DNA from: an uncultured Micavibrio sp.
GTDB taxonomy: Bacteria; Pseudomonadota; Alphaproteobacteria; Micavibrionales; UBA2020
Direction of reading: 5' to 3'
NCBI GenBank assembly: GCA_964575605.1
Contig: CAZNRN010000012.1
Span: forward strand, 2,933-66,932
DNA length: 64,000 nucleotides
In this document: positions 17,779-54,350 of the stretch, piece after piece
How the letters are laid out: each line of letters opens with the position of its first letter
Position numbering within the stretch: position 1 is the stretch's first letter
Notes under the pieces: generated by a model
The model's database searches: none
What the model saw: the letters and a program-made list of their open reading frames with translations, nothing else
Told to the model about the DNA's origin: nothing
Made by a program: the position numbers and the translations under genes

Positions 17779-17782
17779 TCCC

Positions 17783-19092: not shown

Positions 19093-20124
19093 ATGGCTAA
19101 GGACATCGACTTCGATAGCGAGTCCCAAATTAAGAAGCCCGATACGCGGGGCTTTAAAAATACCTCGCGCCGCCTGCGCGAAGGCCAGCAAAAGCCGCTC
19201 AGCCACCGAGCGAGCCTTGACTGGCGCCTGGACCAGCGCACCGTGTGCGATAAGAATGGTCATAGCGCCGAAATCGTTCCCATCGCCGAGCTGAAAGAAA
19301 CTCTGTTGAAGAGCCGCACTGCCGAAGCGCTGTTCGAACAGGCCGGCAACCTCGAGATTGTTTACGACATGCAAAGCGCATCTTCGCAATATTATTGCCG
19401 CGAAGGCTGGCGCGTGATCACGTTGAACCCGCTGCGTCCGAAAGGCGACCTCATCAACCTGCTCGCGAAAGAACTTCGCCGCGACTGGCAATATTGCCAT
19501 GGCGCGCTGGTCAACCCGCTGGGCTACGAACCCGACGAAGCGATCCTTGTCAACCGCGCGCAAAGCGCCGATGTGCTGATGATCGCTGTCAAAATCGCCT
19601 GGGAACTGAAACTGGCCGGCGAAAACGAAGCCTGGGATTTTCTCGCGGCCACGCCGTCGGGAGATGTCACCCGCACTTACGAGCTGAAGGCGCAGGCAGA
19701 TTTCCGCACCCTGAACAACGGTGAAGCGGCGCGCGCGGCCTACGACAAGTTTTTCGAAGACAGCCGTACGAAACTGCATGACAAGCGCCTGATCCATCAG
19801 ATGCTGCTGGATGAAAGCGGCTATATGAAGGCAGGCTCGAAGCGCCCGAAGGTGACCATGGAGCTGTTCCAGCGCCTGGGCGAAGTCCCCGGCGGCCGCA
19901 ATTACCTGTCGATGCAGGCAAAACATGTACCGACCGACATGTGCTACGCAACCGTGGAAGACCGCTCTAACGCGAACTTCCTCTGGTTCATCAAGTTCGA
20001 ACGCAGCTTCCAGGAAAAGGAACTGCAGATGGTTAAAGAATCCGTGAAGCTGTCTGCCGAGGTCGTCGACTTCCGCAAATACTCCACGGGCAAGCGCGCC
20101 CGGCCGTCAGAGCTGGGCCAATAA
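19093..20124 (+). CDS. hypothetical protein, family member P1 with degenerate metal motif (KELRR ... SAD)
   Basis: 343 aa. Aligns by eye along its full length with 20176..21066, 31304..32188 and 53262..54350. KELRR at 19468..19482 sits where the paralogs have HELRH. Shares GGRNYLS with P2. Confidence 0.75.
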   Translation: MAKDIDFDSESQIKKPDTRGFKNTSRRLREGQQKPLSHRASLDWRLDQRTVCDKNGHSAEIVPIAELKETLLKSRTAEALFEQAGNLEIVYDMQSASSQYYCREGWRVITLNPLRPKGDLINLLAKELRRDWQYCHGALVNPLGYEPDEAILVNRAQSADVLMIAVKIAWELKLAGENEAWDFLAATPSGDVTRTYELKAQADFRTLNNGEAARAAYDKFFEDSRTKLHDKRLIHQMLLDESGYMKAGSKRPKVTMELFQRLGEVPGGRNYLSMQAKHVPTDMCYATVEDRSNANFLWFIKFERSFQEKELQMVKESVKLSAEVVDFRKYSTGKRARPSELGQ

Positions 20125-20175
20125 TTTCCGCTGTTCCGCCTCCCGCGGGATTGCCCGGATTTCGGAGGACTAGGA

Positions 20176-21066
20176 ATGCTGGAGCCGTTCTGCGACCGGC
20201 GCATAAAATTCTCCCTCGAGTCGTTGCTGGATCGCGACGCCTATATCGTCCCTGCTGAAAAACGCGCTTCGGCTTTTGCGGGCTATGTCCGAAGCCTTGC
20301 CGCCATAACGTCGCAAAGCTCGCTGGGAAGCGCCTTGTTGCGCGCAGCTGTGCTCCAGGGTGTATCTGTCGGGCTTGACCCCTTGCTTGAGCCCAATTCA
20401 AGTTATTTCTATCCGCAGCAAAACCATTTTGACTTAGGCTTTCAGCCCGACCTGCTGCAAAAGAGCGAAAAAGGCGTCAGCCAGTACCTCGTTTCTTTTG
20501 TCGGCGGTTTGCGCCGTGCGTGGCTTTTGCACAAGGGCCATGCGCCGGATGTTTCGCTTCGTCCCGACGACTTCTTGAAATTCTGCCGCTGTGCGGAAGC
20601 GGATGCAGGAGCTGTAACTCAGCTGGTCGCCTGGGAATTGCGCTCGGCGAATGCCGGTTTCATGTGGCGGCATTTGCTGTCAGGCCCGGACGGGGATATG
20701 TCGGTTATATTTGAACGCGCCATCATGGAAGGGCTGCAGAGCCAGTTTGACGGACTGGCGTTGAAGGCCGCTTTCAACCAATGGTTCGCTGACCGTGAAA
20801 GGATTGCGCTTTGTGATCACACGGCGCTTGAACTTATCGATATGTCGTTGATGCAGTTTGGCGGTCCGCCGCATGTCGGGGTCCGCAGCTTGAAACTCTC
20901 ATCCCTGCAGTCACTGGGTTCGTTGCCCAACGGACGCAACTATTTGTCCGGCTGCCTCTTCATGGGCGGCTGGTATAATATGATTGAGGACGAGTTTAAT
21001 CGTACGCATCTACGCCACATAGAACGGGATATTGCGCAACTTATTGAAAAACAACATAATATTTAA
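20176..21066 (+). CDS. hypothetical protein, family member P2 with degenerate metal motif (GGLRR ... EAD)
   Basis: 296 aa with a GGAGGA ribosome-binding site. GGLRR at 20503..20517. Shares AWEL, NGRNYLS and the C-terminal helix with P1. Confidence 0.75.
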   Translation: MLEPFCDRRIKFSLESLLDRDAYIVPAEKRASAFAGYVRSLAAITSQSSLGSALLRAAVLQGVSVGLDPLLEPNSSYFYPQQNHFDLGFQPDLLQKSEKGVSQYLVSFVGGLRRAWLLHKGHAPDVSLRPDDFLKFCRCAEADAGAVTQLVAWELRSANAGFMWRHLLSGPDGDMSVIFERAIMEGLQSQFDGLALKAAFNQWFADRERIALCDHTALELIDMSLMQFGGPPHVGVRSLKLSSLQSLGSLPNGRNYLSGCLFMGGWYNMIEDEFNRTHLRHIERDIAQLIEKQHNI

Positions 21067-21098
21067 GCGCTATCCTGGCATCTTTAAAATCATAATAT

Positions 21099-21132
21099 TT
21101 GACATAATCTAAGAATCGCGATATCTTCTTAG
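21099..21132 (+). promoter_or_regulatory. sigma70-like promoter (TTGACA-17-TATCTT) overlapped by a 24-bp inverted repeat
   Basis: TTGACA at 21099..21104 and TATCTT at 21122..21127, 17 bp apart. Inverted repeat CTAAGAA(N10)TTCTTAG at 21109..21132. Confidence 0.4.
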
Positions 21133-21172
21133 CCGAAACACGTTATAAAATTTTGGCATAGAGGAATTCATC

Positions 21173-21376
21173 ATGGCTGAAGTCGCATCCGGACCCCAAA
21201 ACGAAATTTTCGCGCCTGCAAAAGCGTCGCTGTGCAAGCAGGCATTCCAATGGGCGGGCGCTGCCGCCTCCGTCATCTGTGCGGAGCCGCCGCAGCAAGG
21301 CTTTGAAGCCGCCGGAAATGCTTACGACTATGTTGCAACGAAAGCTAAATTGGCGCTGAACCCGCCGAAGCGCTAA
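21173..21376 (+). CDS. possible small protein (67 aa)
   Basis: AGAGGA ribosome-binding site 7 nt upstream of the ATG, a promoter-like element upstream, and codon usage resembling its neighbours. No homology recognised. Confidence 0.4.
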   Translation: MAEVASGPQNEIFAPAKASLCKQAFQWAGAAASVICAEPPQQGFEAAGNAYDYVATKAKLALNPPKR

Positions 21377-21377
21377 A

Positions 21378-22151
21378 TCAGAAACCTTGAAGGTCGAGGA
21401 GGTGGGCTTCACCGCGCTTGGTGAGCCACTCCTTGGCCATCATGAGCGCGCGGTCTTTTTCACGGCGCGTCAGGTTTGAATAAACGTTATCACGGTCCGC
21501 CTCTGCGCGGACCTTTTCGTTTCCTTCAGGATAGTAAACGATCGCAAGGTGCAGCCACATCAGCGCGACGATCGCGTCCGAAGGCACCCCTTCGCCAAGG
21601 TAGTACATGACGCCTACGTGGTGCTGTGCCAGCGGGCGGCCGGACTCTGCAGCCTTGAGCAGGAAAGTCATCGCCTTTGCAGGGTCTTTCGGTACGCCCT
21701 GGCCTTGACGGTACATGATGCCCATGATCTCTTGCGCGCCCGGGTGGCCGCCATCGGCCAGCATCTTCATGCTTTTCGCGATGACGTCATATTTTTTCTG
21801 CTGATAGTATTTCATCAGCATTTCGTAGTTCAGCTTTCCTTTGCCTTCGCGAATTGCGCTTTCGGCTGTAGCTTCGTCAGGAGCGGCCTCGGCGGGATCC
21901 AGCACGGGTATAAGAAGGCCCGTCCTGAGGTTGTTGTATTCTTCAACGGGCGGCGGCTTATCCGGATTTTTCTCGACGTAGATTTCAGTGCTGTCTGAAT
22001 TGAAAGTGTTGAACTCGTCACCGTCCGTGCCACCGGTGGCCTTAGTTCCGGCACGCTCGTCGAGAGGGTTATCCTCGGCTGCCTTGATAGTGATGGGCTG
22101 AAATGCGAGCCCGGCGATGACAGCAGCGGCAAGAATTGAACGCAAACGCAT
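21378..22151 (-). CDS. secreted Sel1-repeat (SLR) protein
   Basis: Signal peptide MRLRSILAAAVIAGLAFQPITIKA. Repeats of the GxxxAQxxLGxMYxxGxGVPxD type. Confidence 0.85.
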   Translation of the reverse strand: MRLRSILAAAVIAGLAFQPITIKAAEDNPLDERAGTKATGGTDGDEFNTFNSDSTEIYVEKNPDKPPPVEEYNNLRTGLLIPVLDPAEAAPDEATAESAIREGKGKLNYEMLMKYYQQKKYDVIAKSMKMLADGGHPGAQEIMGIMYRQGQGVPKDPAKAMTFLLKAAESGRPLAQHHVGVMYYLGEGVPSDAIVALMWLHLAIVYYPEGNEKVRAEADRDNVYSNLTRREKDRALMMAKEWLTKRGEAHLLDLQGF

Positions 22152-22240
22152 GGATAACCCCCAGTAACTGCCGGCAAGATGAACGGCCGGCCCCTAGCTA
22201 TCTATTATAGACCTGTTCCTTCAAAAAACCAAAACCGGCC

Positions 22241-23149
22241 CTATTTGCGAAATACGAGTGTCCGCCAATTTCCCACAGGAATAGTCTTCATATGCTTAAG
22301 CCCCTGTTTTACATGGGCGAAGGAAACAAGTTCTTCCTGCCTTGCCAGAAGGCCTGAGAGGACGCAGATACCGTCTTTTTTCAATGCCTTTTGCAACAGG
22401 GGCGCCATATCGACTAAGGGCCCGGCGAGAATATTGGCGCAGATGAGATCATATGGCGCCCCTTCCTTGCAAAGCTTTGTCCTGTAACCGTCGCCGGCGG
22501 CCGCCGATAGTTTGACGCCATTCATCTTTGCATGCCGCTTGCTGACCACAATGCATTCCGGATCGATGTCGATGGCGGTTATTTTCGCCTTGTCCCACAG
22601 CTTCTTCGCTCCTATGGCGAGGATGCCAGAGCCACAGCCCATATCCAGCACGTTTTTAAAGGCCCGCTTTTCTTTCGCCAGCCATTCTAGCGCCATCAGG
22701 CAGCCTTTGGTAGTTTCATGCTCGCCAGAGCCGAAAGCCGTTGCAGCGTCGATTTGCAAAGGAATAAGTCCTTTGGGCGGCGACTTTTTAAAGTGTGAGC
22801 CATGCACGAAAAACCGTTTCGTCTTTACAGGCGGGAAGTTGTCGTGGACATGGCGTAGCCAGTCTTTCTGGGGCATCTTTTCCGCGCGGACCATAGCCTT
22901 GCCCCTCACCACGGTTTTGACACGCGCCAAGATTGCGTCTTTGTCGGGTGCCCCGCGCGTTGTCAGCGTGACTGTCCAGTTGTCCCCATCCTCCGCTTCC
23001 TTGTTATGGAGAAAGACAGCAGCCGCAAGGTCTTCGACGGCGTCGGAGACGGCCTGTGCGGTCATGCCATCCAGTTTTTTGGCAAAACCGAGGCTTACAC
23101 GATGCAGGACGGGCGCCTTTGCGGCGGGCTTATTCTTCGGAGCGGGCAT
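22241..23149 (-). CDS. prmA: ribosomal protein L11 methyltransferase
   Basis: PrmA layout with the SAM motif VLDMGCGSGILAI and FGSGEHETT. Confidence 0.85.
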   Translation of the reverse strand: MPAPKNKPAAKAPVLHRVSLGFAKKLDGMTAQAVSDAVEDLAAAVFLHNKEAEDGDNWTVTLTTRGAPDKDAILARVKTVVRGKAMVRAEKMPQKDWLRHVHDNFPPVKTKRFFVHGSHFKKSPPKGLIPLQIDAATAFGSGEHETTKGCLMALEWLAKEKRAFKNVLDMGCGSGILAIGAKKLWDKAKITAIDIDPECIVVSKRHAKMNGVKLSAAAGDGYRTKLCKEGAPYDLICANILAGPLVDMAPLLQKALKKDGICVLSGLLARQEELVSFAHVKQGLKHMKTIPVGNWRTLVFRK

Positions 23150-23278
23150 GACAGATACTATGGATAAGGGTTGTAAAACAAGCGCTTGGGGTGATCATTC
23201 TTGATATGCCGGCTTTTGTCCACCATATTGTTATACAGTCATTTTTCGGATTGGCATTTCTCCAGACAGGGCATCGCT

Positions 23279-24421
23279 ATGGAACATGAAGCCGTCATTT
23301 GCGGATACGTCCGCACCCCCTTCCACTTCGCCGGCAAGGGCGACCTTGCCTCGGTCCGTCCCGATGACCTTGCCGCGGTCGCCGTGCTCGGCCTGCTCAA
23401 GCAGACCAGTGTGGATGAAAAGGAAATCGAAGATCTTATTCTCGGTTGCGCTTTCCCGGAGGGCGAGCAGGGTTTCAACCTGGCGCGCCTTGTCGTGAAT
23501 ATCGCCAAGCTGCCGCTGTCGATTGCTGGTGTAACCGTCAACCGTTTCTGCGGATCATCCATGCAGGCGATCCATCAGGCCGTCGGTGCTATCAAAACCG
23601 GCACCGGCAAAGTATTTATTTGTGGCGGTGTCGAGAGCATGTCGCGCATCCCGATGGGCGGCTTCAATCCCCTGCCCAACCCGCAGCTGGTGGCCGATTA
23701 TCCGCAGGCCTATATCGCCATGGGCGAGACGGCCGAGAACCTGGCCAACAAATTCAAGATCAGCCGCGCCGAGCAGGAAAAGTACGCGCTGCTGTCGCAG
23801 CAGAAAGCGACCCTTGCGCGCGCCGGTGGCCGTCTGACGCCTGAACTGGTCTCTGTTACGACGCCGGATGGCAAGGTTGTGACCGAAGACGGCTGCATCC
23901 GTCCTGAAACGACCGCGCAGGGCCTTGCGGAACTGAAACTGGCTTTTGATGCAAATGGTTCTGTGACTGCGGGCACTTCGTCGCCCTTGACAGATGGCGC
24001 TTCGGCGACGCTGGTCACGTCGATGGAGTACGCCAAGGCTCATGGATTGAAAATCCTTGCTAAAATAAAATCGATGGGGGTTGCAGGCTGCGCGCCTGAA
24101 ATCATGGGTTACGGCCCCGTCCCCGCATGCCAGAAGGCGCTGGAGCGCGCGGGCCTTAAAATCGGGGATATCGATATCTTCGAGTTCAACGAGGCTTTTG
24201 CCGTGCAGTCGATGACCGTCTGCCGCGAACTGGGCGTCGATGAAAGCAAGCTGAACCTGGACGGTGGGGCAATTGCCCTTGGCCATCCGCTTGGCGCATC
24301 AGGTGCACGTATTACCGGCAAGGCCGCAATGCTGCTCCAACGCGAGAAAAAACAGTTGGCGCTGACCACCATGTGCATTGGCGGCGGCCAGGGCATCGCC
24401 ACGGTTCTGGAAGCCGCCTGA
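23279..24421 (+). CDS. acetyl-CoA C-acyltransferase (3-ketoacyl-CoA thiolase, FadA-like)
   Basis: VNRFCGSSMQA active-site Cys, NLDGGAIALGHPLGASG, CIGGGQG. Start at MEHEAVICGY (23279). Confidence 0.88.
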   Translation: MEHEAVICGYVRTPFHFAGKGDLASVRPDDLAAVAVLGLLKQTSVDEKEIEDLILGCAFPEGEQGFNLARLVVNIAKLPLSIAGVTVNRFCGSSMQAIHQAVGAIKTGTGKVFICGGVESMSRIPMGGFNPLPNPQLVADYPQAYIAMGETAENLANKFKISRAEQEKYALLSQQKATLARAGGRLTPELVSVTTPDGKVVTEDGCIRPETTAQGLAELKLAFDANGSVTAGTSSPLTDGASATLVTSMEYAKAHGLKILAKIKSMGVAGCAPEIMGYGPVPACQKALERAGLKIGDIDIFEFNEAFAVQSMTVCRELGVDESKLNLDGGAIALGHPLGASGARITGKAAMLLQREKKQLALTTMCIGGGQGIATVLEAA

Positions 24422-25446
24422 TGCTGACGGAGGCTATCCGCCGCATTCCTAAAGTCGACCTGCACGTCCATCTGGAGGGTACAATTTCCCCGCAGATTGT
24501 CGCGCGCATGGCGGAGCGCAACCGGCTTCCCGTGCCGCAGGGGCTGACAGCGCCTGATGGTCTCAGCATTCACTGGCAGCCGCAAACTACACCGCAAGAT
24601 AACCTGCTGTCTTTCCTCAAGGCCTATGACGAAGCGACGAAGGTAATGAAGACGGCCGCGGATTATATCGACCTTACTCATGATTACCTGCAGCGCTCCG
24701 CCGCCGAGGGTTGCATATACGCGGAACTGACGATTTCGGTTGAACATGGCGAAATGGTCGGGCTGCAGTATCCCGACATGCTGGCTGCCATCACCGAAGG
24801 ATACGAGCGTGCGAAAAAAGAAACCGGCATCGAGGCGCGCCTTATTTCAAGCTGCGTGCGTCATTACGGGCCCAAGTCGGCGTTGCGCGTCGCTGAAGTA
24901 ACCCGGGATAATCCCCACCCGCTCGTTACCGGCTTCGGCATGGCGGGAGATGAAAACGCCTATACGGTCGCGGACTTCAAACCGGCATTCGAGATATGCA
25001 GCCATCTTGGCCGCACGGCGCATGCCGGCGAGGCCTCAGGGCCTGAAACGGTACGGCAAGCGCGAGATATTTTGAAGCTGCGCCGCTTCGGACATATGGT
25101 GCGCGCTATTGAGGACGCCGAATTGATGCAGGAACAGGTAGCCATCAAGGCGGTGCCCGAAGTCTGCGTTGGCAGCAATCTTGCGCTGAAGGTTTATCCG
25201 GATTACAAAGCGCATCCGCTGCGCCGGTTTTTCGATGCGGGATTAAAAGTGACGCTGGGATCCGATGACCCGACCTTTTTTGGCACGTCAATTGGCCGCG
25301 AGTATCAGAACGCCCATGACAAGGCGGGCTTCACCGAAACGGAACTCGCAAAAATTTCGCAGAACGCGATAGAAGAGGCCTTCGTTGACGAGACAACACG
25401 CAGCAGGCTGTTGGATAAGATTTCAGCGTTCAAGACTGCCGCCTGA
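24421..25446 (+). CDS. add: adenosine deaminase
   Basis: IPKVDLHVHLEG, HAGE and TLGSDDP motifs. The ATG shares one nt with the thiolase TGA (TGATG). Confidence 0.88.
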   Translation: MLTEAIRRIPKVDLHVHLEGTISPQIVARMAERNRLPVPQGLTAPDGLSIHWQPQTTPQDNLLSFLKAYDEATKVMKTAADYIDLTHDYLQRSAAEGCIYAELTISVEHGEMVGLQYPDMLAAITEGYERAKKETGIEARLISSCVRHYGPKSALRVAEVTRDNPHPLVTGFGMAGDENAYTVADFKPAFEICSHLGRTAHAGEASGPETVRQARDILKLRRFGHMVRAIEDAELMQEQVAIKAVPEVCVGSNLALKVYPDYKAHPLRRFFDAGLKVTLGSDDPTFFGTSIGREYQNAHDKAGFTETELAKISQNAIEEAFVDETTRSRLLDKISAFKTAA

Positions 25447-25566
25447 GTTTTCTGCCCAGCTTTTCATAAGGGCACAAACGGCCGATATTATTTGACAGTT
25501 TTTCCTTTTATGCCTCATGATGCGCGCATCAGACAAAAATAACAGGCACATCACGGAGGTACTTCG

Positions 25567-26031
25567 ATGAAGGCTTCTACCAAAGTTGCGGCAGGCGCGG
25601 GCGCGCTGGCAGCAGGTATCGGTATTGCTTGCGCATTTCTTTGCCCGCTCGCGGGTCTTGCGGCTGGTGCTTACTTCACTTACGGCGCAGTTGCTGCGAC
25701 CATGGGCACGGCGGCAACCGTCGCATTGACGGCAGCTGGCGCAGTTGGCGGCATGCTGGTCGGCCGCATTGCAGCGCCAATAGTGGCGATTGCCAGTATC
25801 GGCCTAGGCGCTGCTGTGGGCCTGGGTGTCAAAGCGATCGGTTCGGGCATCGAAAAAATCCGTGGCGAAAAAACTGGTGCGCCTGCACAGAAATTCATGT
25901 CGCTTGAAACAACCTCGTTCAATCTGGTCTCTACCCTGAAATCTGCTTTCAGCAGGGCACAGCAGCCGAAGGCTGAAATCACAAAGCCTGTCCCGCGGTT
26001 GGAAATGGTGCCCAAGACGCCCAGCCTCTAA
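25567..26031 (+). CDS. Gly/Ala-rich small membrane protein (154 aa)
   Basis: GGAGG ribosome-binding site. The N-terminal ~100 aa are almost entirely G/A/V/I/L/T (2-3 predicted helices) and the tail is hydrophilic. A strong terminator follows. Confidence 0.7.
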   Translation: MKASTKVAAGAGALAAGIGIACAFLCPLAGLAAGAYFTYGAVAATMGTAATVALTAAGAVGGMLVGRIAAPIVAIASIGLGAAVGLGVKAIGSGIEKIRGEKTGAPAQKFMSLETTSFNLVSTLKSAFSRAQQPKAEITKPVPRLEMVPKTPSL

Positions 26032-26056
26032 CGACTAAGAATAGTATAGGAATAGC

Positions 26057-26088
26057 GAAAACCGCGCCTTGCAACGGCGCGGTTTTTT
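26057..26088. terminator. bidirectional rho-independent terminator
   Basis: AAAA-CCGCGCC-TTGCAAC-GGCGCGG-TTTTTT, a 7-bp GC stem flanked by an A-run and a T-run, lying between convergent genes. Confidence 0.75.
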
Positions 26089-26241
26089 GTTGACATTGTC
26101 AGCTTTAATGGCGATGTATTGGAAAGCCGAAATTGCCTTCTGGCATACGGTGCCTCGTTTTCCCAATGAATCTCAAGGTAATAAAATTTCAGGCGCCCTA
26201 TATGTGGGTGTTTTCCAATACACGTGGATTAATCGGGAGGG

Positions 26242-26634
26242 TCAGGTTGCGCTGAAGGTTCTTTTCAACCCGCGTCTGGCGTTCGACGCCATATCGCGTT
26301 CGACGGCATTGACGATTTGCTGGCCGACAATGGCGTTGACTTCGAGCAGGCTTTCTTTCGCATCGTTAAAGGTGCGCACGGCCGCCAAGTGGTCGGCGGG
26401 ACGCAGGTTAGCCAGCAGCGTGTGGACGCTGGCAGGCTTGGCACGGCGGTTGAATTCATTTTCGCGCGTCTGGAGCTGCGACGCTGCGAGGAAGAAATCG
26501 GTCAGGACTTTTTCGGCAGCAGGCGCGCCTGCGACATAGGCGGCCTTTAGCGTGCCCAGCGTCACGGCGTTGAAGCCGGTTGCGAGCACGCCGTTCAGGT
26601 CGTCTAAATTGTCTGTCCCTTTCAAGCGGACCAT
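26242..26634 (-). CDS. hypothetical protein (130 aa)
   Basis: Preferred over the overlapping plus-strand ORF 26069..26539, whose product is an R/S/A-rich low-complexity sequence. This frame gives a balanced, helix-prone composition. Confidence 0.55.
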   Translation of the reverse strand: MVRLKGTDNLDDLNGVLATGFNAVTLGTLKAAYVAGAPAAEKVLTDFFLAASQLQTRENEFNRRAKPASVHTLLANLRPADHLAAVRTFNDAKESLLEVNAIVGQQIVNAVERDMASNARRGLKRTFSAT

Positions 26635-26761
26635 GGCAGTAAGACCTTGCCCTTTTTCGGGTTTTCGGGTATCAATTTTCCTTAATGCTCATTATACCTG
26701 AAAATCCGGGTTTGTGCGGAAAAAGTTAATTTTCCGGAAGATAGACAGTTAAGTTGCTGAT

Positions 26762-29258: not shown

Positions 29259-29286
29259 ATATGTTAAATTAAGACCTTTCCGCAGT

Positions 29287-29302
29287 TGTTTCACGTGAAA
29301 CA
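29287..29302. promoter_or_regulatory. parS site, perfect TGTTTCACGTGAAACA
   Basis: Exact palindrome in the rsmG-parA intergenic region. Confidence 0.9.
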
Positions 29303-29326
29303 ACTGGGAGGAGCGTCTCTGCGCAC

Positions 29327-29342: not shown

Positions 29343-29406
29343 ATTTGCAATTAAATTAGCCACGCGATGGCTTGATTGGACTCGGGAAGAGGATTACAAA
29401 GTCTTC

Positions 29407-31232: not shown

Positions 31233-31303
31233 TGCAGCCAGGCAAAGGGGCTTACTAATCTTTACGCTGGACCTGGACTTCCGCCACAAAACGTACGCGG
31301 TTG

Positions 31304-32188
31304 ATGGAGGATACGCAGCGTATATTATCGCTCTGGCCTGAAACGAAAACCCTGCTGGATCTCGCTTCCGCACAAAATGTGCCTATTGTTTTTAACGGTG
31401 ATTTAATTGGCACTGATACCGATGGGGTCAACATTATCAACCGCACCGCCGGCACGCGCCAAATCGAGTTGAAGCCGTATAAAAGTCCCGAAGATTGCGC
31501 AATTGCGCTTATTCACGAACTCAGGCATTTGTGGCAGGACGTGGCACTTGGCCTGACCGCGGCGACCCGCGGCCTTGGCGAAAGAGATGCCACGACGGTT
31601 GTTCTACTGAACCGCGTGCGCGAGGCAGATGCCTATGCATTCACAGATTTGATGATAGGGCGCATCAATCATTTCCAGGAAGATTTCCGGAAGTCGGAGA
31701 ACCTGCGCGCCGCGCTGCTCTTCCTTCATCGAGGGCAGCCGCTGACAGAGGGCCAGGAAAACGAGGTTAGTGACGTTATCGCCGAAGCAATCACCGGACG
31801 CCTGCCTGCTGAACGCGCCGCCGCAAGCGCCAAGTTTGAAAAGGCCCTGTCATGGCTGGATAGCTACGACTGCGAAGCAATCCAAAGCTATCAACGCCGG
31901 TATTGCCCTCCCATAGATCCGGGTCTTCCGCATATGACGGAAGCGCAAGGCCATATTGTCACCCTTGCCGATATCCGCAAACTCTGCGTGGTCGGCGAAG
32001 GGCCGACCCGCATATCATATATGGACGATTTGGCGGATCAAGATTTCACCGCGCTTGTCATGAAAGACGTCAAACCATCGGTTGCTGAAGTGATATCGAT
32101 GATTGAAGATTTCGAAAACGCAGGCGCGAAAAACGTGAAGCAAAAAGCCGAAATCGATACCCGTCTCAGGGCGGCGCTTAAGCCTTAA
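31304..32188 (+). CDS. hypothetical protein, family member P3 with intact HELRH ... EAD (putative gluzincin-like metallopeptidase)
   Basis: HELRH at 31514..31528 with READAYAF about 33 aa downstream. Colinear with P1, P2 and P4. No signal peptide. ATG at 31304 (the ORF track starts at a TTG at 31301). Confidence 0.75.
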   Translation: MEDTQRILSLWPETKTLLDLASAQNVPIVFNGDLIGTDTDGVNIINRTAGTRQIELKPYKSPEDCAIALIHELRHLWQDVALGLTAATRGLGERDATTVVLLNRVREADAYAFTDLMIGRINHFQEDFRKSENLRAALLFLHRGQPLTEGQENEVSDVIAEAITGRLPAERAAASAKFEKALSWLDSYDCEAIQSYQRRYCPPIDPGLPHMTEAQGHIVTLADIRKLCVVGEGPTRISYMDDLADQDFTALVMKDVKPSVAEVISMIEDFENAGAKNVKQKAEIDTRLRAALKP

Positions 32189-44758: not shown

Positions 44759-44812
44759 GCGTGTAGCCCCGGAACTCCAGTAATGCACCCTGACGCGATG
44801 TTAAGTAACCGG

Positions 44813-46212: not shown

Positions 46213-46266
46213 TACCGCTTAAAGGATAGCGGAAAGGGCAGGCTGCTGCCAGAGAGTTAGAAATGC

Positions 46267-46788
46267 TTAAAAACCGGGGCCTTTGGGGCCGGGACGGCGC
46301 GGCAGGCCCGCGGGCGCCACCTTCGTGAAGGGGAAGTGGCGGCGTGTGCCTTCAACCAGGCCGGTTTTACCGTTTTCCTCGACCTTTGAGCGCTGCAGGT
46401 CCTGCCAGCTACGCTCCGTCACCGAAAATTCACCATCGCTGCCGGTAAACTCGATTTCTATTTCCTTGTCGTAAGGATTTGTCGATTGAATCTGTACCGC
46501 CGGCACATCGCTGTGTCCGCCGATGCGTATGGAATAAGTGTCGTTGAGGTGTGTCAGTTCGTTCATCAACTCTGCCAGCGCGAGTTTGCGTGTATAGGGA
46601 TCAGGATCAAAAACCTGATCGCCCGCGCGCAGCACGGCTGTTTTCACACGCTCGCTCCACGCAGGGAAATCGCCCATCTGAGCGGGCTGCAGCTTGTCGT
46701 CGGGCAGGCTGAACGCAATCATGTAGCCAAGACCATTCTCAATGGTCTCGCTCTTTACTTCCACGGTCAGGCAAAAGGACTTCGCCAT
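46267..46788 (-). CDS. hypothetical protein (173 aa)
   Basis: Clean ORF between ispH and thrB on the same strand. No recognisable family. The C-terminus is R/P/G-rich. Confidence 0.6.
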   Translation of the reverse strand: MAKSFCLTVEVKSETIENGLGYMIAFSLPDDKLQPAQMGDFPAWSERVKTAVLRAGDQVFDPDPYTRKLALAELMNELTHLNDTYSIRIGGHSDVPAVQIQSTNPYDKEIEIEFTGSDGEFSVTERSWQDLQRSKVEENGKTGLVEGTRRHFPFTKVAPAGLPRRPGPKGPGF

Positions 46789-46894
46789 CGCTTGCGATTC
46801 TCGTCGTTGAAACTAAATGACTGTCTGGGCGCTACTATATGGGGTGAAGTTTCAAAATCAAGCCTGAAAAACACAGAAAATGACTTTTTCTGTA

Positions 46895-47839
46895 TCAGGC
46901 CGTGAGGATGCGGGGGATTTTGAAGGTCAGGCCTTCTTGCGCCACTACTGTGGTCTCGACCTTGACCTCGTAATCCTGCCGGGCCCGGTCGATCACTTGC
47001 TGTACAAGCAATTCTGGGGCAGAGGCGCCGGCTGTCAGGCCCAAAACGGTCATGCCCTTAAGCGCATCCCAGGGGATATCCGAAGCCTTGTCGGCAAGGT
47101 AGGCCTGTTTCGCGCCATAGGCCTTGGCAACCTCCACCAGCCGGTTCGAGTTCGAGGAGCTTTTGGAGCCAATCACCACCACTGCATCTGCCTTCGGCGC
47201 GATGTCCTTCACCGCAAGCTGGCGGTTGGTGGTGGCATAGCAGATATCTTCTTTTTTCGGCGCCGCGACCAAAGGATAACGCTGCCGCAGGGCATCGACG
47301 ATTTCTTTGGTGTCGTCGATAGATAAAGTTGTCTGCGTCACATAAGCGATTTTATTGCTGTCGCTGAATTGCAGCTTCGCGACATCTGCCATGGTTTCAA
47401 CCAGCACGACAGCGCCTTCCGGCAGCTGTCCCATCGTGCCGATCACCTCTGGATGCCCCGCATGGCCGATCAGGATGATTTTATGCCCGTTGCGATGGTG
47501 CAGCTCCGCTTCGCGGTGAACCTTGCTGACCAAAGGGCAGGTGGCGTCGACAAAGATCATGTTCCGCCGTTTCGCTTCTTCGGGCACATGTTTCGGCACG
47601 CCATGAGCCGAAAAAATAACAGGCGCACCCTCGGGCACTTCGGTCAGTTCCTTTACGAAGACGGCACCCTTGGCGCGCAGGTCTTCGAGGACGTGTTTAT
47701 TATGTACAATCTCGTGCCGCACATAGACGGGTGCCCCGAACTTGGCGAGCGACTTCTCGACGATCTCGATCGCGCGGTCGACGCCCGCGCAAAAACCCCG
47801 CGGGCTGGCCAGAAGGATGGTGAGGGGCGGCTTTTCCAT
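46895..47839 (-). CDS. ispH: 4-hydroxy-3-methylbut-2-enyl diphosphate reductase
   Basis: [15 protein letters not shown] with conserved Cys and His residues. Start set at MEKPPL (47839). The TTG at 47902 would add 21 aa with no counterpart in E. coli IspH. Confidence 0.9.
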
Positions 47840-47919
47840 GTGCCTGACTATAGGTGCCGCAGGGGCTTGAGTCGAGGGGCGGGCAGGGGTATCTTTGTGC
47901 AAATCTTCAGGAAAAAACC

Positions 47920-48471
47920 ATGCGAAACCTTCTTATCTGCCTCACTGTCCTTCTGCTGGCCGGCTGTACGGCAGCCGCCAATATGGTGGGGCTTGGCGAG
48001 AAAAAAGCGCCCGAGTACAGCTGCCCCGGCACGGCTGTGGTTTTCGGGGCGGATATCATCCCGGTCTTCGCCCCGGGCTCCCCGGCTAAGCCGGAGCCTG
48101 CCAATCTGGCCTCTACGGGCGTCTGGGGGCGCTATCAGGGGGATTGCTCTTATCACGACAAGGCCAACGAGGTTGCCTTTAACCTGAACCTTAATTTCCA
48201 GGCGCAAAAAGGCCCTATGGGCCAAAAGCTTAAGAAACAGAATTTACCATATTTCGTCGCTGTCCTGTCGCCCGAGGATAAAATATTGCAACGGACGGAG
48301 TTTTCGACTACGGTTGATTTCGATAATTCACCCGCCGGAACATCCACGGAACAACATTCGATCCGTATTCCGGTGTCGGGCAAGGCGACTGCCGGCAAGT
48401 ACAAACTGGTCTTCGGCTTTATCCTGACGCCCCGCCAACTTAACTATAACAGGGAAAAACATGGCTCTTAA
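47920..48471 (+). CDS. hypothetical lipoprotein
   Basis: [16 protein letters not shown] lipobox and an AGGA ribosome-binding site. Confidence 0.7.
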
Positions 48472-49090
48472 GGTCAAGCAATTCTGGCAGTCCGAGTTTA
48501 CCGAGCATGAAGACGTCATGGCGTTGACGCGCCAGCAGCTTCTGGGTTCCTTCGAAAAACTGCTCGAGGTTTCCACGTCCTGCATCAAGGCCGGCGGCAA
48601 GATCCTGTTCTTCGGCAACGGCGGCTCGGCTTCCGATGCCCAGCACCTGGCAACCGAACTGTCGGCGCGCTACAAGACCAACCGCGCCGCTATCGCCGCT
48701 ATCTCGCTGGCCACCGATACTTCCGCACTGACGGCGATCGGCAACGATTTCGGCTTCGAACATGTGTTCTCCCGCCAGATCGAGGCTATTGGCAAGCAGG
48801 GCGACGTTGCTATATGCATTTCCACCTCCGGCAACAGCCCGAACGTCCTGAAGGCGATTGAGCAGTGCAAGGCCCAGGGTATCACCACCGTCGGCTTCAC
48901 CGGCTTCTCGGGCGGCAAGATGGCCCCCTTGTGCGATATCCTGCTGAACGTGCCCTCGACCACCACGGCGCGCATCCAGGAGATGCACATCACGCTTGGC
49001 CAGATGTTCTGCGGCGCGCTGGAGCTGAACCTTGGCCTCGTCGCCGAGACGCAGCAGCAGCCCGCGGCGCCTGTCGCCAAAACCGCCTGA
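48461..49090 (+). CDS. SIS-domain protein, GmhA (phosphoheptose isomerase) / DiaA family
   Basis: GGKILFFGNGGSASDAQHLATEL and ISTSGNSPNV. GmhA and DiaA cannot be told apart by eye. Confidence 0.8.
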   Translation: MALKVKQFWQSEFTEHEDVMALTRQQLLGSFEKLLEVSTSCIKAGGKILFFGNGGSASDAQHLATELSARYKTNRAAIAAISLATDTSALTAIGNDFGFEHVFSRQIEAIGKQGDVAICISTSGNSPNVLKAIEQCKAQGITTVGFTGFSGGKMAPLCDILLNVPSTTTARIQEMHITLGQMFCGALELNLGLVAETQQQPAAPVAKTA

Positions 49091-49104
49091 GCCGAGTCTC
49101 TATT

Positions 49105-49353
49105 ATGTCAAAACAAGCTGCCGATCTCGAAAAACTGAGCTTCGAAGAAGCCCTGACCGAGCTTGAAAAGATCGTACGCCAGCTTGAAACCGGCTCCTCC
49201 GACCTGAAATCCTCCATCGACGCCTACGAGCGCGGCATGAGCCTGCGCAAGCTGTGCGATGGTAAACTGAAAGAGGCACAGGGCCGTATCGAGAAGATCA
49301 CGGTTGGCGAGGGCGGCAAGGCATCCGCCGAAAGCTTCAGGCTGCAGGAATAA
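49105..49353 (+). CDS. xseB: exodeoxyribonuclease VII small subunit
   Basis: LSFEEALTELEKIVRQLE... 82 aa. Sits in the conserved xseB-ispA-dxs order. Confidence 0.88.
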   Translation: MSKQAADLEKLSFEEALTELEKIVRQLETGSSDLKSSIDAYERGMSLRKLCDGKLKEAQGRIEKITVGEGGKASAESFRLQE

Positions 49354-49439
49354 CCCTCCCGTTCAAAAATAGTGCCTTTTTTCTGCGACTTAGGGTATAA
49401 CAGTCGTCAGCAAAAAACTGTCAGAAGGCATTTAAAACG

Positions 49440-50348
49440 ATGGCGCCATCACCACGCGAGGCAACACCGAAACTCTCACAGGCGATGGACGACTGCCGCG
49501 AAGGCGTCAACAAAACCATCGCAAGCCTCCTGCCTGCGACCGACCTGGTCGAAGCGCCCCTTTTCGATGCCATGCGCTACGCGGTTCTGAACGGCGGTAA
49601 ACGCCTTCGTCCCTTCATGGTGATGGAAGGTGCGCGCGTTTTTGGTGTCGATGCCGCCCGTGCCCGCCGCGTTGCCGCCGCTGCTGAAATCGTACACTGC
49701 TATTCGCTCGTCCACGACGACCTTCCCGCAATGGACAACTCCGACCTCCGCCGCGGCAAGCCTTCGCTGCACAAGGCTTATAACGAGGCGACCGCTATCC
49801 TTGCGGGCGATGCGTTGTTGACGCTCGCTTTCGAAATCCTTGCAGATCCAGAAACGCATGAAGATCCGCGCGTGCGTGTAGAACTGATGGCTAACCTTGC
49901 AGGCGCCATTGGCATGCATGGCATGGTTGGCGGCCAGATGCTTGACCTGATTGGCGAAAAACAGGAATTCGACGCTGGCACCATTACGCGCATGCAACGC
50001 ATGAAAACCGGCAAGCTGATCGCCTTCTGTTGCGAAGCAGGCGCGATCCTCGGTAAAGCGAACCCGGCGCACCGCCAATCGCTACGCAACTATGCCCATG
50101 ACCTCGGCCTCGCCTTCCAGGTGACGGACGACTTGCTCGACGTCGAAGGCAACGTGAAGGAACTGGGCAAGCCGGTCGGCGCAGATGGCAAGAAGGCGAC
50201 CTTCGTCTCCGCCATGGGTGTCGAACAGGCCAAAGCGCGCGCCCAGATGCTGGTCGACCAGGCAATCATGCACCTGCGCGTGTTTGACGCGGGGCGCGTC
50301 GATCTGCTGAAAGACCTTGCCCGCTACGTGCTCGAACGCCGGGTTTAA
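49440..50348 (+). CDS. ispA: (2E,6E)-farnesyl diphosphate synthase
   Basis: First DDxxD in HCYSLVHDDLPAMDN and second in FQVTDDLLD. Confidence 0.9.
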   Translation: MAPSPREATPKLSQAMDDCREGVNKTIASLLPATDLVEAPLFDAMRYAVLNGGKRLRPFMVMEGARVFGVDAARARRVAAAAEIVHCYSLVHDDLPAMDNSDLRRGKPSLHKAYNEATAILAGDALLTLAFEILADPETHEDPRVRVELMANLAGAIGMHGMVGGQMLDLIGEKQEFDAGTITRMQRMKTGKLIAFCCEAGAILGKANPAHRQSLRNYAHDLGLAFQVTDDLLDVEGNVKELGKPVGADGKKATFVSAMGVEQAKARAQMLVDQAIMHLRVFDAGRVDLLKDLARYVLERRV

Positions 50349-50535
50349 TTCTTTCGGTTACCCCATAATTTTGCGCAATAAAGCCACGGTTTTGGCACCG
50401 TGAACGCATTATTTCCGCTTTATATCAATGGTATAATAAGGATAAGACCGGCACCTGGAACTGCACGGGAAGATTGAACCACCCTCTGTCAATTTTCCTG
50501 AAAACGTGTATAAAAACAGGCAAAGGAAAACAGCC

Positions 50536-52449
50536 ATGGCAACTCCGCTCCTTGATAAGGTCAATTATCCGAACGACCTGCGTCAACTGGACAAGAAAGA
50601 CCTGCCCCAGCTTGCTGCCGAACTGCGGCAGGAGATGATTGATGCCGTCGCCGTCACGGGCGGGCATTTGGGCGCTGGCCTTGGTGTGGTCGAGCTGACG
50701 ACAGCCATCCACTATGTTTTCAACACACCCGAAGACCGCCTGATCTGGGATGTTGGACATCAAGCCTATCCGCATAAAATTCTCACCGGCCGCCGCGACC
50801 GCATCAAGACACTGCGTCAGGGCGGCGGTCTTTCGGGCTTCACCAAGCGTTCCGAGAGCGAATACGACCCCTTCGGCGCCGCCCATAGCTCGACGTCGAT
50901 TTCTGCCGGACTCGGCATGGCGGTCGCGCGCGATTTTGATAAAGGCGACAACAAGATCATCTGCGTCATCGGCGATGGCGCGATGTCGGCCGGTATGGCC
51001 TACGAAGCTATGAACAATGCCGGCGCGCTGAAAAGCCGCCTCGTCGTTATCCTGAACGACAATGACATGTCTATTGCGCCGCCTGTGGGCGCGATGAGCG
51101 CTTACCTCTCCCGCCTGATTTCGTCGAAGCCTTACTTAAGCATGCGCGAAATCGGCAAGAAGATGACGGGCAGGCTACCGCCGCTGATGAAAACCGCCGC
51201 CAAGCGCGCCGAGGAATATGCGCGCGGCATGATGACGGGCGGCACATTGTTCGAAGAACTCGGTTTCTATTATGTGGGCCCGATTGACGGCCACAACCTC
51301 GACCACCTGCTGCCCGTACTTGAAAACGTGCGCGACAGTATTTATGAAGGCCCGATCCTCGTCCACGTGGTAACCAAAAAAGGCAAAGGCTACCCGCCTG
51401 CTGAAACCGCCGCCGACAAGATGCACGGCGTCGCGAAATTCGACGTGCTGACCGGCGCGCAGGCCAAGCCTAAAACCACGTTGCCCAGCTATACCAAGGT
51501 TTTCGCGCAGAGCCTGATCGAAGAAGCAAAGCGCGACCCGAAAATCGTCGCGGTGACCGCGGCCATGCCCTCGGGCACCGGTCTTGACCTGTTCGAAAAA
51601 GCCTTCCCCGACCGTATGTTCGACGTCGGCATCGCCGAGCAGCATGCGGTGACTTTCGCGGCCGGCCTTGCCACCGAAGGCTATCGCCCCTTCGTCACCA
51701 TCTATTCGACTTTCCTGCAGCGCGCCTATGACCAGGTTGTGCATGATGTCGCCATACAGAACCTGCCGGTGCGTTTCGCCATGGACCGTGCGGGCCTTGT
51801 CGGCGCCGATGGCGCGACGCATGCGGGATCCTTTGATATCGCCTACCTCGGTTGCCTGCCCAATATGGTGCTGATGGCAGCTGCGGATGAAGTCGAGTTG
51901 CAGCATATGACCGCGACCGCTGCTGCCTATGACTCTGGCCCCATCGCCTTCCGTTATCCGCGTGGCGAGGGCATCGGGCTCGAACTACTGCCGCACGGCA
52001 TTCCACTTGAAATCGGCAAGGGCCGCGTCATGAAGCAGGGCACGAAAATCGCGCTGCTCAGCTACGGAACACGCTTGCAGGAATGCCTTGCCGCTGCGCA
52101 GCAGCTGGAAGCCATGGGCCTGTCGACAACCGTCGCTGACGCCCGTTTCGCTAAACCGCTGGACGCCGACCTGATTGGCCGCCTCGCCCGCAACCACGAA
52201 GTCGTGGTGACGGTGGAGGAGGGTTCAATCTGTGGCTTTGGTGCCTTGGTCCTGCAACATCTTGCGCAAACCGGCGCGCTGGACGCAGGCCTGAAAATCC
52301 GCACCATGACCCTGCCCGATATCTTCATCGACCACGACACGCCGCAAAAGCAGTATGACCTGGCCGAACTGAACGCGCGCCATGTTGTGTCACAGGCCGT
52401 ACAGGCGCTAGGCACTGGCGCTGCTTTGCCCTCGGCGCTGAAAGCCTGA
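50536..52449 (+). CDS. dxs: 1-deoxy-D-xylulose-5-phosphate synthase
   Basis: [14 protein letters not shown] and [18 protein letters not shown] motif. Start at MATPLLDKV with an AAGGA ribosome-binding site. Confidence 0.95.
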
Positions 52450-53189
52450 TGGGCGATAAGAAGCGCATCGACCTCATCCTTGTCGAAAAAGGACTCGCGC
52501 CCAGCCGTGCGCGCGCGCAGGAACTTGTGAAAAACGGCCTTGTCAAAGCCAATAACCTCCCTGTGTCAAAACCTTCTTCCGAATTCGACCCCTCCACGGA
52601 TATTGCCGTCAGCGGCGATGTGCACAGCTGGGTCAGCCGTGGCGGGCAAAAACTTGATCATGCGCTACAGGAATTCAGTATCGCAGTCGGGGGCAAGACC
52701 TGCCTCGACCTTGGCGCTTCTACCGGCGGTTTCACGGATGTGCTGCTGCACCATGGCGCCAGAAAAGTTTACGCCGTTGATGTGGGGCATGGCCAACTTG
52801 CTGAAAAGCTGAAATCGGATACGCGGGTCGTGAATATCGAAGGTATGCACGCCAAAGACCTTGATGCCAAAAGTATACCCGAGCGCGTTGACATTATAGT
52901 GATCGACGTCAGTTTTATCGGTCTCTCTAAAGTCCTGCCTTTCGCGGCCGCCCTTGCGGCGAAGGAGTGCGACCTCGTCTGCCTTGTGAAGCCGCAGTTC
53001 GAAGTCGGCCGCGAAAACATCGGCAGGGGCGGCATCGTGCGCGATGATGCTATGCAGCGTAAAGCCTGCACGGATGTTCAAGCCTTCATCGAATCGACCC
53101 TGAAGTGGGACGTGAAAGGGATCATCAAAAGTCCGATTGACGGCGGGGACGGGAACCGCGAGTTCCTGCTTGCGGCCTCCAACTACTAG
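52449..53189 (+). CDS. tlyA: TlyA-family rRNA 2'-O-methyltransferase
   Basis: S4-like N-terminus (RIDLILVEKGLAPSRARAQELV) and LDLGASTGGFTDVLL. TGATG overlap with dxs. Confidence 0.88.
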   Translation: MGDKKRIDLILVEKGLAPSRARAQELVKNGLVKANNLPVSKPSSEFDPSTDIAVSGDVHSWVSRGGQKLDHALQEFSIAVGGKTCLDLGASTGGFTDVLLHHGARKVYAVDVGHGQLAEKLKSDTRVVNIEGMHAKDLDAKSIPERVDIIVIDVSFIGLSKVLPFAAALAAKECDLVCLVKPQFEVGRENIGRGGIVRDDAMQRKACTDVQAFIESTLKWDVKGIIKSPIDGGDGNREFLLAASNY

Positions 53190-53261
53190 AAAATCATTGC
53201 ATTTTAAGAGCTTAGGGCAGCTATTGCCCGTTCCTGCAAAGCTGTTTATTGTCATAAGCAT

Positions 53262-54350
53262 ATGACAGACAAGCATGATCGCGATAAACCTGCGCCGGAA
53301 CAGGCGCCGGCAAACAACACGCCCTCAGTGGCGACGCCATGGCTTGCGCGCGTGAAATCGCGCGTCAAAAAAATCGTCGATACTGTCGATGACCGTTGCG
53401 CACAGCTGCGGCACGGTTCGCACAGCGACCATCGCCGCGCCATCATCGCGCGCCTGAAAGAACTGCCGGGCGGCGAGGCCATGCTGCTTTCCGCTAAAAA
53501 GCACGGTGTGAAGATTTCCGTCGTCTCGCTGCGCCGGAACAAGGGCAGCAAGGGGAAATTCACCCGCAGCAGCAGCGGCGCTCGCATCCGTGTCAGCAAT
53601 ACAGGCTCAGGCGCGCGCATGGCGACGACGCTCTGGCACGAACTACGCCATATGCAGCAGCATATCGAGCGGGGAGATATGACGGGCGGCGTTACACGTG
53701 TGCTTGATACGCGCGCGCAGCACATGATTTCATTGATGATCGAGGCCGACGCCTATACTGCGCAGATGCTGATGGGCCTGCGCCAGAAGAAAGCCGGCAA
53801 CCCCGAATATTATGACGCGCTGATGGAACGTAAATCACCCGCCTTCATCTCTATCAAAAAATTCCTAAAAAAAACGCCTTACGAAACCGTGCAGGACGAA
53901 AAGGCCTTTGCGCGCGCGCTGTTCACTGAAATGATGCTGACCGGCCTTCCGGCCTATCACGCCAAATATCTAGATGCCTATGCGAAAGCTTTCGAAAGCG
54001 CCAAAACTGCGGAAGAATTCAGGGCGCAGATGAGTGGGCGTAAACCACCGCCCGACTTTGCGCCGTCAAAATCGCTGCATGATATTTATGGCGTCACAGC
54101 ACCTCCTGATTTGCGCCGCATCGCAGCTTCGTTCCTTTCTGCACAAGACAAGGCTTTGCGCAGGGTCATCGGTAAGGTCGATGATACGACCCGGAATGCT
54201 GCAATGATCAGCGAAACGGATTTTCAGCAGGCAAAGGCGGAAATTGTCCGCGAATCAAAAAGACTCGCAAAATCCTTCAGAAAAAATGCCGCGCCAACTT
54301 CCCCACAGAAACACGATATACTGCGTACAGCAGCAATAAAGCCGTTTTAA
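53262..54350 (+). CDS. hypothetical protein, family member P4 with intact HELRH ... EAD (putative gluzincin-like metallopeptidase)
   Basis: HELRH at 53637..53651 with MIEADAYTA about 33 aa downstream. Colinear with P1-P3. No obvious SD sequence before the ATG. Confidence 0.7.
   Translation: MTDKHDRDKPAPEQAPANNTPSVATPWLARVKSRVKKIVDTVDDRCAQLRHGSHSDHRRAIIARLKELPGGEAMLLSAKKHGVKISVVSLRRNKGSKGKFTRSSSGARIRVSNTGSGARMATTLWHELRHMQQHIERGDMTGGVTRVLDTRAQHMISLMIEADAYTAQMLMGLRQKKAGNPEYYDALMERKSPAFISIKKFLKKTPYETVQDEKAFARALFTEMMLTGLPAYHAKYLDAYAKAFESAKTAEEFRAQMSGRKPPPDFAPSKSLHDIYGVTAPPDLRRIAASFLSAQDKALRRVIGKVDDTTRNAAMISETDFQQAKAEIVRESKRLAKSFRKNAAPTSPQKHDILRTAAIKPF

Follow-up and report, generated by a model that had tools for sequence, protein, structure and literature searches.

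Conserved loss of zinc ligands in two of four DUF6782 putative metallopeptidase paralogues of a Micavibrio-like alphaproteobacterium

Why would a bacterium keep four related proteins, two with and two without the zinc-binding motif of a metallopeptidase? The question is raised by a 64,000-nucleotide stretch of DNA from an uncultured Micavibrio sp. (assembly GCA_964575605.1, contig CAZNRN010000012.1, positions 2,933 to 66,932), the whole of which is called the window here. An initial annotation, made from the sequence alone, had described four hypothetical proteins of about 300 residues, two carrying HELRH...EAD and two with that motif ablated. All four open reading frames (ORFs) were found on the forward strand: P1 at 19093..20124, P2 at 20176..21066 (51 bp downstream of P1), P3 at 31304..32188 (71 bp after parB and convergent with holA), and P4 at 53262..54350 (72 bp after a tlyA-like methyltransferase gene). 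P3 has an alternative TTG start at 31301. When all six-frame ORFs in the window were searched with a profile built from P1-P4, no fifth copy appeared.

All four proteins clear the 27-bit gathering threshold set for Pfam PF20573 (DUF6782, "Putative metallopeptidase family"), scoring 97.7 (P1), 64.3 (P2), 32.6 (P3), and 60.4 bits (P4). They are real, old paralogues of a catalogued family, members of which NCBI names "DUF6782 family putative metallopeptidase". The initial annotation had not recognised the family. An NCBIfam search of P1-P4 returned no match, and searches of the PDB with three family profiles yielded chance matches only, with no relative by sequence. An exhaustive hidden Markov model (HMM) search with a P3/P4-type profile recovered 573 representatives at 50% identity (E ≤1e-3), 161 of which reach 1e-10. 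The description "lineage-specific" holds loosely, in that the named sources are all uncultured alphaproteobacteria or Micavibrio-type metagenome-assembled genomes (MAGs), but it sits poorly with 573 representatives and a Pfam entry of their own.

The four proteins had also been said to align along their whole length, which is overstated. BLASTP is significant within the pairs P1-P2 (1e-12 over 150 residues) and P3-P4 (1e-4 over 75 residues) only; P1-P3 gives 0.004, and P2-P3 and P2-P4 give no significant match. By profile-profile comparison, the homology between the two pairs covers a 127-column core only (P4 59-192 versus P1 65-189; probability 96%, E 2.9e-9). GRNYLS, part of the second shared block, occurs as described at residue 268 of P1 and residue 253 of P2. 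The absence of signal peptides and transmembrane segments agrees with a simple hydropathy scan, which shows no transmembrane-like stretch in P1-P4, and with their polar N-termini.

The motif states were confirmed in the nucleotides. P3 carries HELRH at 31514-31528 (residues 71-75) and EAD at 31622-31630, and P4 carries HELRH at 53637-53651 (residues 126-130) and EAD at 53742-53750; the spacers, previously counted as 27 and 25 residues, are both 23. The corresponding blocks are KELRR (19468-19482) and SAD (19564-19572) in P1, and GGLRR (20503-20517) and EAD (20596-20604) in P2. Thus, P3 and P4 contain the HExxH of zincins and gluzincins, whereas P1 and P2 do not; P2 has lost both His and the catalytic Glu while keeping EAD, and P1 has Ser where the distal Glu would be (Gln in its consensus). 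The candidate third ligand is E107 in P3 and E161 in P4, invariant in their orthogroups, with E161 lying on helix 150-177 of the P4 model. Every sequence of the P3 and P4 orthogroups shows the gluzincin signature, in which HExxH is followed 30-31 residues later by a Glu, and nearly all of DUF6782 shares it. Among 154 tabulated sequences (the best 150 of the 573 representatives and the window's four), 146 have HExxH, mostly as HELRH with Gln three residues on, plus E(A/G)D, a sample biased by a query profile that itself carries the motif. Judged by these residues, P3 and P4 keep everything that a zinc-dependent peptidase needs, and P1 and P2 almost certainly bind no catalytic zinc.

The altered sites are not idiosyncrasies of one genome. 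The orthogroups comprise 121 sequences for P1, 35 for P2 (the window's and 34 orthologues), 14 for P3, and 39 for P4. P1 has 1,039 homologues, of which the best 120 show 58-92% identity, and the consensus of its orthogroup reads R-E-L-R-R...N-R-A-Q-Q-A-D. The first His is replaced by Arg in 118 of the 121 sequences and the second in 113; the Glu is kept in 119, and the distal Glu has become Gln in 81. K126 and S158 of the window's P1 are minority variants. In the P2 orthogroup, G-(G/A)-L-R-R...R..E-A-D is fixed in all 35 sequences, and HELRH and EAD are invariant in the orthogroups of P3 (14 clusters) and P4 (39 clusters).

Among the four paralogues, P1 shows the highest conservation, exceeding that of HemH, HemE, and PrmA. 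Over the 21 genomes holding every compared gene, the median identity to the window is 87.6% for Rho, 82.1% for the product of orf17170, 73.4% for thiolase, 67.1% for P1, 60.7% for HemH, 57.6% for HemE, 55.9% for PrmA, 52.8% for P2, 50.3% for a Sel1-repeat protein, and 46.0% for an APH-family kinase. The ratio of nonsynonymous to synonymous substitution rates (dN/dS), estimated by the Nei-Gojobori method from comparison with the closest relative, comes to 0.066 (P1) and 0.054 (P2), with neighbours at 0.036-0.110, values that are qualitative because synonymous sites are near saturation in several genes. Around the former active site of P1, E127, R129, Q133, N154-Q157, A159, and D160 are invariant or nearly so. 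Its densest invariant block is C-terminal, EDRSNANFLWFIKFERSFQEKE (residues 289-310), where the sole exception, S305, is nearly invariant; this block opens a long helix in the model. On this sequence evidence, the ligand-less P1 and P2 are functional and under purifying selection that matches in strength that on core metabolic enzymes. The earlier description of an ablated motif was right that both proteins lack metal ligands, but nothing has decayed: the P1 site is a conserved alternative, R-E-L-R-R.

Other alphaproteobacterial DUF6782 arrays consist of a two-module protein and one to three single-module genes. In three other arrays, each module has HExxH...EAD, with one E-to-D exception in a triple P4-type array. 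Since arrays elsewhere keep HExxH, the loss of the ligands is specific to the P1 and P2 orthogroups. Two arrays lie within housekeeping operons of other Alphaproteobacteria: one encodes a 715-residue two-module protein plus three genes after lpxB (L054, 6001..11131), the other, next to the suf operon, a 707-residue two-module protein and a single further gene (L053, 6001..9344), and all their modules have HExxH...EAD.

The age of the copies was traced through P1 orthologues in one genome per species, which gave 45 genomes, all MAGs, with a single locus each. They are labelled Alphaproteobacteria, Micavibrio sp., Rhodospirillaceae, or "Bdellovibrionales", the last because NCBI taxonomy places Micavibrio under Bdellovibrionales. 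In 35 of the 45, P1 is followed by an orthologue of P2, and these 35 include the deepest branches (42-48% identity); the tandem is therefore ancestral to the Micavibrio-like clade. P3 keeps its slot (gidA-gidB-parA-parB-[gene]-holA-lptE-leuS) down to its most distant orthologue, at 34% identity; one relative at 50% adjoins carD instead. Two further MAGs, labelled as a Micavibrio sp. and an Alphaproteobacteria bacterium, retain the P4 slot, dxs-(tlyA)-[gene]-acyl-CoA dehydrogenase, the latter with three tandem copies. P1-P2, P3, and P4 all stand within housekeeping operons (hemE/prmA, parAB, and dxs-tlyA, respectively). In the nearest relative, the orthologues of P1, P3, and P4 probably share one 84,741-base contig, which includes its P1-P2 locus. 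The suggestion that the family is expanding in this lineage thus does not survive: each paralogue forms its own orthogroup with a fixed motif, the tandem is ancestral, and even at 31-34% identity P3 and P4 have orthologues in the corresponding position. Local copy number changes in the P4 type only, from one to three per slot.

Two further observations concern these loci. In L051 (3807..7124), three tandem P4-type genes occupy the slot of the window's single P4, and the middle copy reads HEVRH...MDAD, with the distal Glu changed to Asp. Three records labelled "Patescibacteria group bacterium" (L015, DASPMW010000191.1; P0019; P0142) carry the full alphaproteobacterial hemH-hemE-orf17170-APH-P1-P2-Sel1-prmA locus and are probably mis-binned or mislabelled MAGs.

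Structure models were built with AlphaFold on family alignments. Both are confident: P4 reached a predicted local distance difference test (pLDDT) score of 92.1 and a predicted template modelling (pTM) score of 0.88, and P1 a pLDDT of 80.1. Both models run from three β strands through the motif helix (P4 117-137) and a long EAD helix (P4 150-177) to an all-helical C-terminal half. Foldseek searches of the PDB with the two models returned nothing at E ≤0.001. The only high-probability matches were local and to the SprT domain of SPRTN (6mdw, 6mdx), with probabilities of 0.90 for P4 and of 1.00 and 0.99 for P1; the next matches of P1 were MATCAP, an M61 aminopeptidase, and IrrE/PprI, all zincins. 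Among 52 P3/P4-type relatives, the secondary Pfam family matched most often was Peptidase_M78 (19 of 52, best E 1.8e-6); Peptidase_M91 was matched by 7 of 52 and MPTase-PolyVal by 2 of 52. The Pfam name, the M78 matches, the model topology, and the zincin fold matches support the gluzincin-type origin proposed at the outset. The accompanying guess at DUF4157 found no backing: P1-P4 have no match to it at E ≤1, and it lies outside the 25 Pfam families most often matched by the 52 relatives (19 further families match at most one member each). As judged from these matches, the nearest sequence relative of DUF6782 is Peptidase_M78 (ImmA/IrrE), not DUF4157. The helical C-terminal half of some P4-type proteins also weakly matches PF14203 (TTRAP, "putative transposon-transfer assisting protein"; best E 4.7e-6), as seen in P0156 (L052, 5001..6134) and in 6 of the 52 members of the relatives' alignment A3.

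What might such a set of proteins do? DUF6782 proteins would be cytoplasmic-type proteins of about 300 residues built on a minimal gluzincin-like core, a three-stranded sheet with the HELRH and EAD helices, to which an all-helical C-terminal half that differs between subfamilies would be added. From their motif, topology, and family relations, P3 and P4 are most likely small regulatory metallopeptidases that would act site-specifically, in the manner of ImmA/IrrE or SprT, rather than in bulk degradation. Before the Micavibrio-like clade radiated, both zinc-binding His of P1 changed to Arg, and the HE of P2 to Gly/Ala. As P1 and P2 are strongly constrained yet ligand-less, we infer that they serve as zincin scaffolds without catalytic activity, in the role of subunits for binding or regulation. 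The explanation that we favour and regard as probable combines these elements: P3 and P4 are peptidases, and P1 and P2 are metal-free binding or regulatory subunits, probably acting with the APH kinase.

The kinase gene (17783..18820, forward strand; Pfam PF01636, E 2.9e-12), of the phosphotransferase fold, lies upstream of P1, with its start taken at the ATG 4 bases past the stop of orf17170. It has no NCBIfam equivalog. An identity as AmgK, the peptidoglycan-recycling kinase, was considered and rejected, as NCBIfam gives just three far-sub-threshold matches (LxmK, TIGR02172, and MTR kinase) and no AmgK. The Sel1-repeat protein (21378..22151, reverse strand; Pfam Sel1, E 1.5e-15) is encoded convergently with P2 and has an N-terminal signal-peptide-like segment, MRLRSILAAAVIAGLAFQPITIKA, as read from its sequence. 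The kinase is found upstream of P1 in 30 of the 45 loci, and the Sel1 protein is present in 36.

A link between these genes is provided by P0276, a protein of 2,563 residues encoded by one 7.7-kb gene between putA and the ATP synthase F0 operon on a bacterial contig of 271,527 bp (JGI sample 3300071358). It comprises, in order, Sel1 repeats, two DUF6782 modules, two unassigned regions, an APH kinase domain, and a C-terminal hydrophobic segment. The DUF6782 modules, both HELQH...EAD, get their highest scores from the P1/P2 subfamily HMMs (61-69 bits, versus about 20 for P3/P4), and the direct matches of P0276 in the window are P1 (5e-16), the Sel1 protein (7e-12), and P2 (9e-6). By the Rosetta-stone argument, the fusion suggests that a kinase, two P1/P2-type modules, and Sel1 repeats belong to one functional module. 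P1 and P2 thus probably work with an APH-type kinase, as this one fusion protein indicates. The window's APH kinase is a candidate functional partner of P1/P2, and its Sel1 protein is a candidate partner on the fusion evidence alone. Further two-module DUF6782 fusions (P0253, P0266, and P0259) imply that the modules operate in pairs. The module would then consist of the APH kinase, P1, and P2, possibly joined by orf17170 and the Sel1 protein. Speculatively, what was once a peptide-binding groove and now has an Arg lining would accommodate a kinase ligand or substrate, perhaps a phosphorylated one.

A (Q/E)HGTSEG motif recurs in the two unassigned regions of P0276, as TLQHGTSEGNLSRILNNGF near residue 1120 and as TLEHGTSEGALYSILTDGF near residue 1575; the regions have no Pfam assignment, and BLAST of the protein against itself showed no repeat. 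The hydrophobic segment, residues 2337-2378, is Gly/Ala-rich.

Several points weigh against the favoured explanation. The kinase and Sel1 link depends on one fusion protein, encoded on one contig, and because both of its DUF6782 modules keep HExxH, it is silent on the role of the ligand-less versions. Synteny adds little to the kinase link, because all nearby genes (hemH, hemE, prmA, and thiolase) are conserved in order. The Sel1 protein looks exported, and P1 and P2 do not. Co-absence of APH and P2 goes back to one or two events, and APH persists without P2 in two genomes. No paper in the literature mentions DUF6782 or PF20573, a family without experimental study. The joint loss of APH and P2, seen in six loci that lack both, had at first looked like strong evidence of a functional link and was then given less weight, since a P1 tree puts the P2-less genomes in one clade and one branch.

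The most substantial alternative, which we nevertheless hold to be unlikely, is that P1-P4 are all exported effectors against prey or host cells, akin to the NleD-type (M91) proteins, with paralogues directed at different prey proteins. Some of these genomes are publicly labelled Micavibrio, and a cultured Micavibrio species is described as an obligate epibiotic predator in one report (PMC6145908). The build of P0276 (very large, multi-domain, with Sel1 repeats and a C-terminal hydrophobic segment) resembles that of an effector or toxin; weak matches to the Peptidase_M91 "effector protein" family occur in 7 of the 52 relatives and in fusion proteins; ankyrin-repeat genes and a gene like Tle1 of the type VI secretion system stand near P4-type arrays, the latter about 2 kb downstream of that in L051; and P4-type copy number varies from one to three. 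However, P1-P4 have neither signal peptide nor transmembrane segment, their genes sit in housekeeping operons with no adjoining secretion genes, the M91 matches are below or marginal to threshold, and P1 evolves more slowly than core enzymes (dN/dS as above), a poor fit to an arms race.

A second alternative concerns P1 and P2 only and appears distinctly improbable: they could still be enzymes with a new chemistry, in which the Glu and Arg cluster of P1 forms a metal-independent hydrolase or transferase site, for example for a phosphorylated or carboxylated substrate. The retention of E127 in 119 of 121 sequences and the (nearly) invariant R129, Q133, N154, R155, Q157, and D160 would suit catalysis as well as binding. 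P2 lacks the Glu too, however (G-G/A-L-R-R), and the most conserved block of P1, helix 289-310, lies outside the pocket and better fits a protein-protein interface; moreover, metal-independent catalysis has, to our knowledge, never been described for the zincin fold, which counts against this idea. The remaining notion, that the zincin likeness is superficial, DUF6782 being helical regulatory or structural proteins whose HExxH metal serves sensing or stability and none of the four a peptidase, draws on whole-model Foldseek matches that are mostly helical-bundle noise with none at E 0.001 and on a family never studied by experiment, but it is very improbable given the invariant signature in the P3 and P4 orthogroups and its near-universality in the family, the correct strand-helix-helix topology of the P4 model, and independent Pfam matches (M78, M91, SprT-like, MPTase-PolyVal) that are all zincin.

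The surroundings of the kinase-P1-P2 genes contain one further strongly conserved gene. orf17170 (17170..17778, forward strand) encodes 202 residues and is found in 35 of the 45 loci, which are all those with shared local synteny and upstream sequence, including ones lacking APH and P2; it stands directly upstream of P1 or of APH-P1. Its dN/dS is 0.041, and its identity exceeds that of every compared neighbour but Rho. It has no match in Pfam, NCBIfam, PADLOC, or PHROGs, and its PDB matches are at chance level (E 0.43 and 0.86). An orf17170-like region is absent from P0276 and from the surroundings of the other DUF6782 arrays searched. By these searches and its substitution pattern, orf17170 is an unclassified, strongly constrained, clade-specific protein. 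Across the clade, the order hemH-hemE (reverse), orf17170-APH-P1-P2 (forward), Sel1-prmA (reverse), and thiolase (forward) is conserved. Readings of the locus as a defence system or prophage were discarded, as no PADLOC or PHROGs profile matched. In a promoter and terminator scan of 16600-21500, sites were no commoner than in shuffled sequence, and Rfam and tRNA scans of the window found one tRNA-Leu only, unrelated to P1-P4.

Two other ORFs of the window are of note. A 565-residue AAA+ ATPase of the CbbX/SpoVK/EccA type is encoded between rho and hemH (12523..14220, forward strand); it has a homologue in 2 of the 45 related loci only, at the same position in L002 only, and has the appearance of a variable insertion, since gene order around it is otherwise conserved. 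A 278-residue ORF (54347..55183, reverse strand) is convergent with P4, their stops overlapping by 4 bases; it has no family match (PADLOC, PHROGs, and others) and is not in the corresponding slot of L051 or L052.

What is already known here is the family itself, and the gluzincin idea of the initial annotation is what the Pfam name says. What appears new is that the best conserved and most widespread DUF6782 branch has Arg fixed in place of both zinc-binding His, that this P1 branch stands in ancestral tandem with a second ligand-less paralogue, and that a fusion protein links the P1/P2 pair to a kinase and Sel1 repeats. For the P1 and P2 orthogroups, the label "putative metallopeptidase" used in databases is probably a misnomer. 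Pseudoenzyme branches are common across enzyme families, and no long-standing open question hinges on the P1/P2 finding. DUF6782, a putative protease family that is wholly uncharacterised, is concentrated in uncultured bacteria related to the predator Micavibrio, and these results offer a concrete, testable entry point into it. A bolder form of the favoured explanation, which we think doubtful, is that a zincin scaffold became the metal-free P1 and P2 before the clade radiated and that these form, with the APH kinase, orf17170, and perhaps the Sel1 protein, a clade-specific and possibly essential module in which the groove reads or holds a phosphorylated ligand. Such a partnership between a kinase and pseudoproteases, if real, would be of a new kind.

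Comparison with known systems places the four proteins as follows. Within DUF6782 (PF20573), P1 and P2 span nearly all of the 241-position model, whereas P3 and P4 match its N-terminal 60-145 positions only and have C-terminal halves of their own; the family name presumes a metallopeptidase, but P1 and P2 lack the ligands behind it. DUF4157 shares just the short HExxHxxQ string with the P3/P4-type motif. Peptidase M91 (NleD-type effector, PF14891) is also an HExxH zincin, weakly matched by seven of the 52 relatives and by multi-module proteins, but these matches are marginal (best 32 bits versus a cut-off of 25, and in P0253 only) and no secretion-system context is seen here. The SprT-like domain of SPRTN (6mdw, 6mdx) is the best local structural match of both models, covering 82-93 columns over the sheet and the active-site helix, with an E of only about 0.1 to 0.8 and a root-mean-square deviation of 5-7 Å; P0266 has a weak SprT-like Pfam match. 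The third zinc ligand of SprT is a His soon after the motif, whereas in DUF6782 it would be the Glu of EAD. The closest parallel in sequence is Peptidase M78 (PF06114; ImmA/IrrE/PprI). No window protein reaches its threshold of 22 bits (13.6 bits and E 0.061 for P4, no match for P1-P3), and some relatives pass it; by these scores, the link is one between families, not membership. The usual substrate of ImmA/IrrE is an adjacent helix-turn-helix repressor, and no such repressor gene was seen beside any copy, either among the window neighbours (parB/holA, tlyA/unassigned ORF, APH kinase/Sel1) or at the related loci. Like DUF6782, M78 consists of small zincins of the cytoplasm, in which HExxH is followed after about 27-31 residues by a Glu on the next helix and then by a helical C-terminal domain; the Arg within HELRH and the Gln three residues after it are specific to DUF6782.

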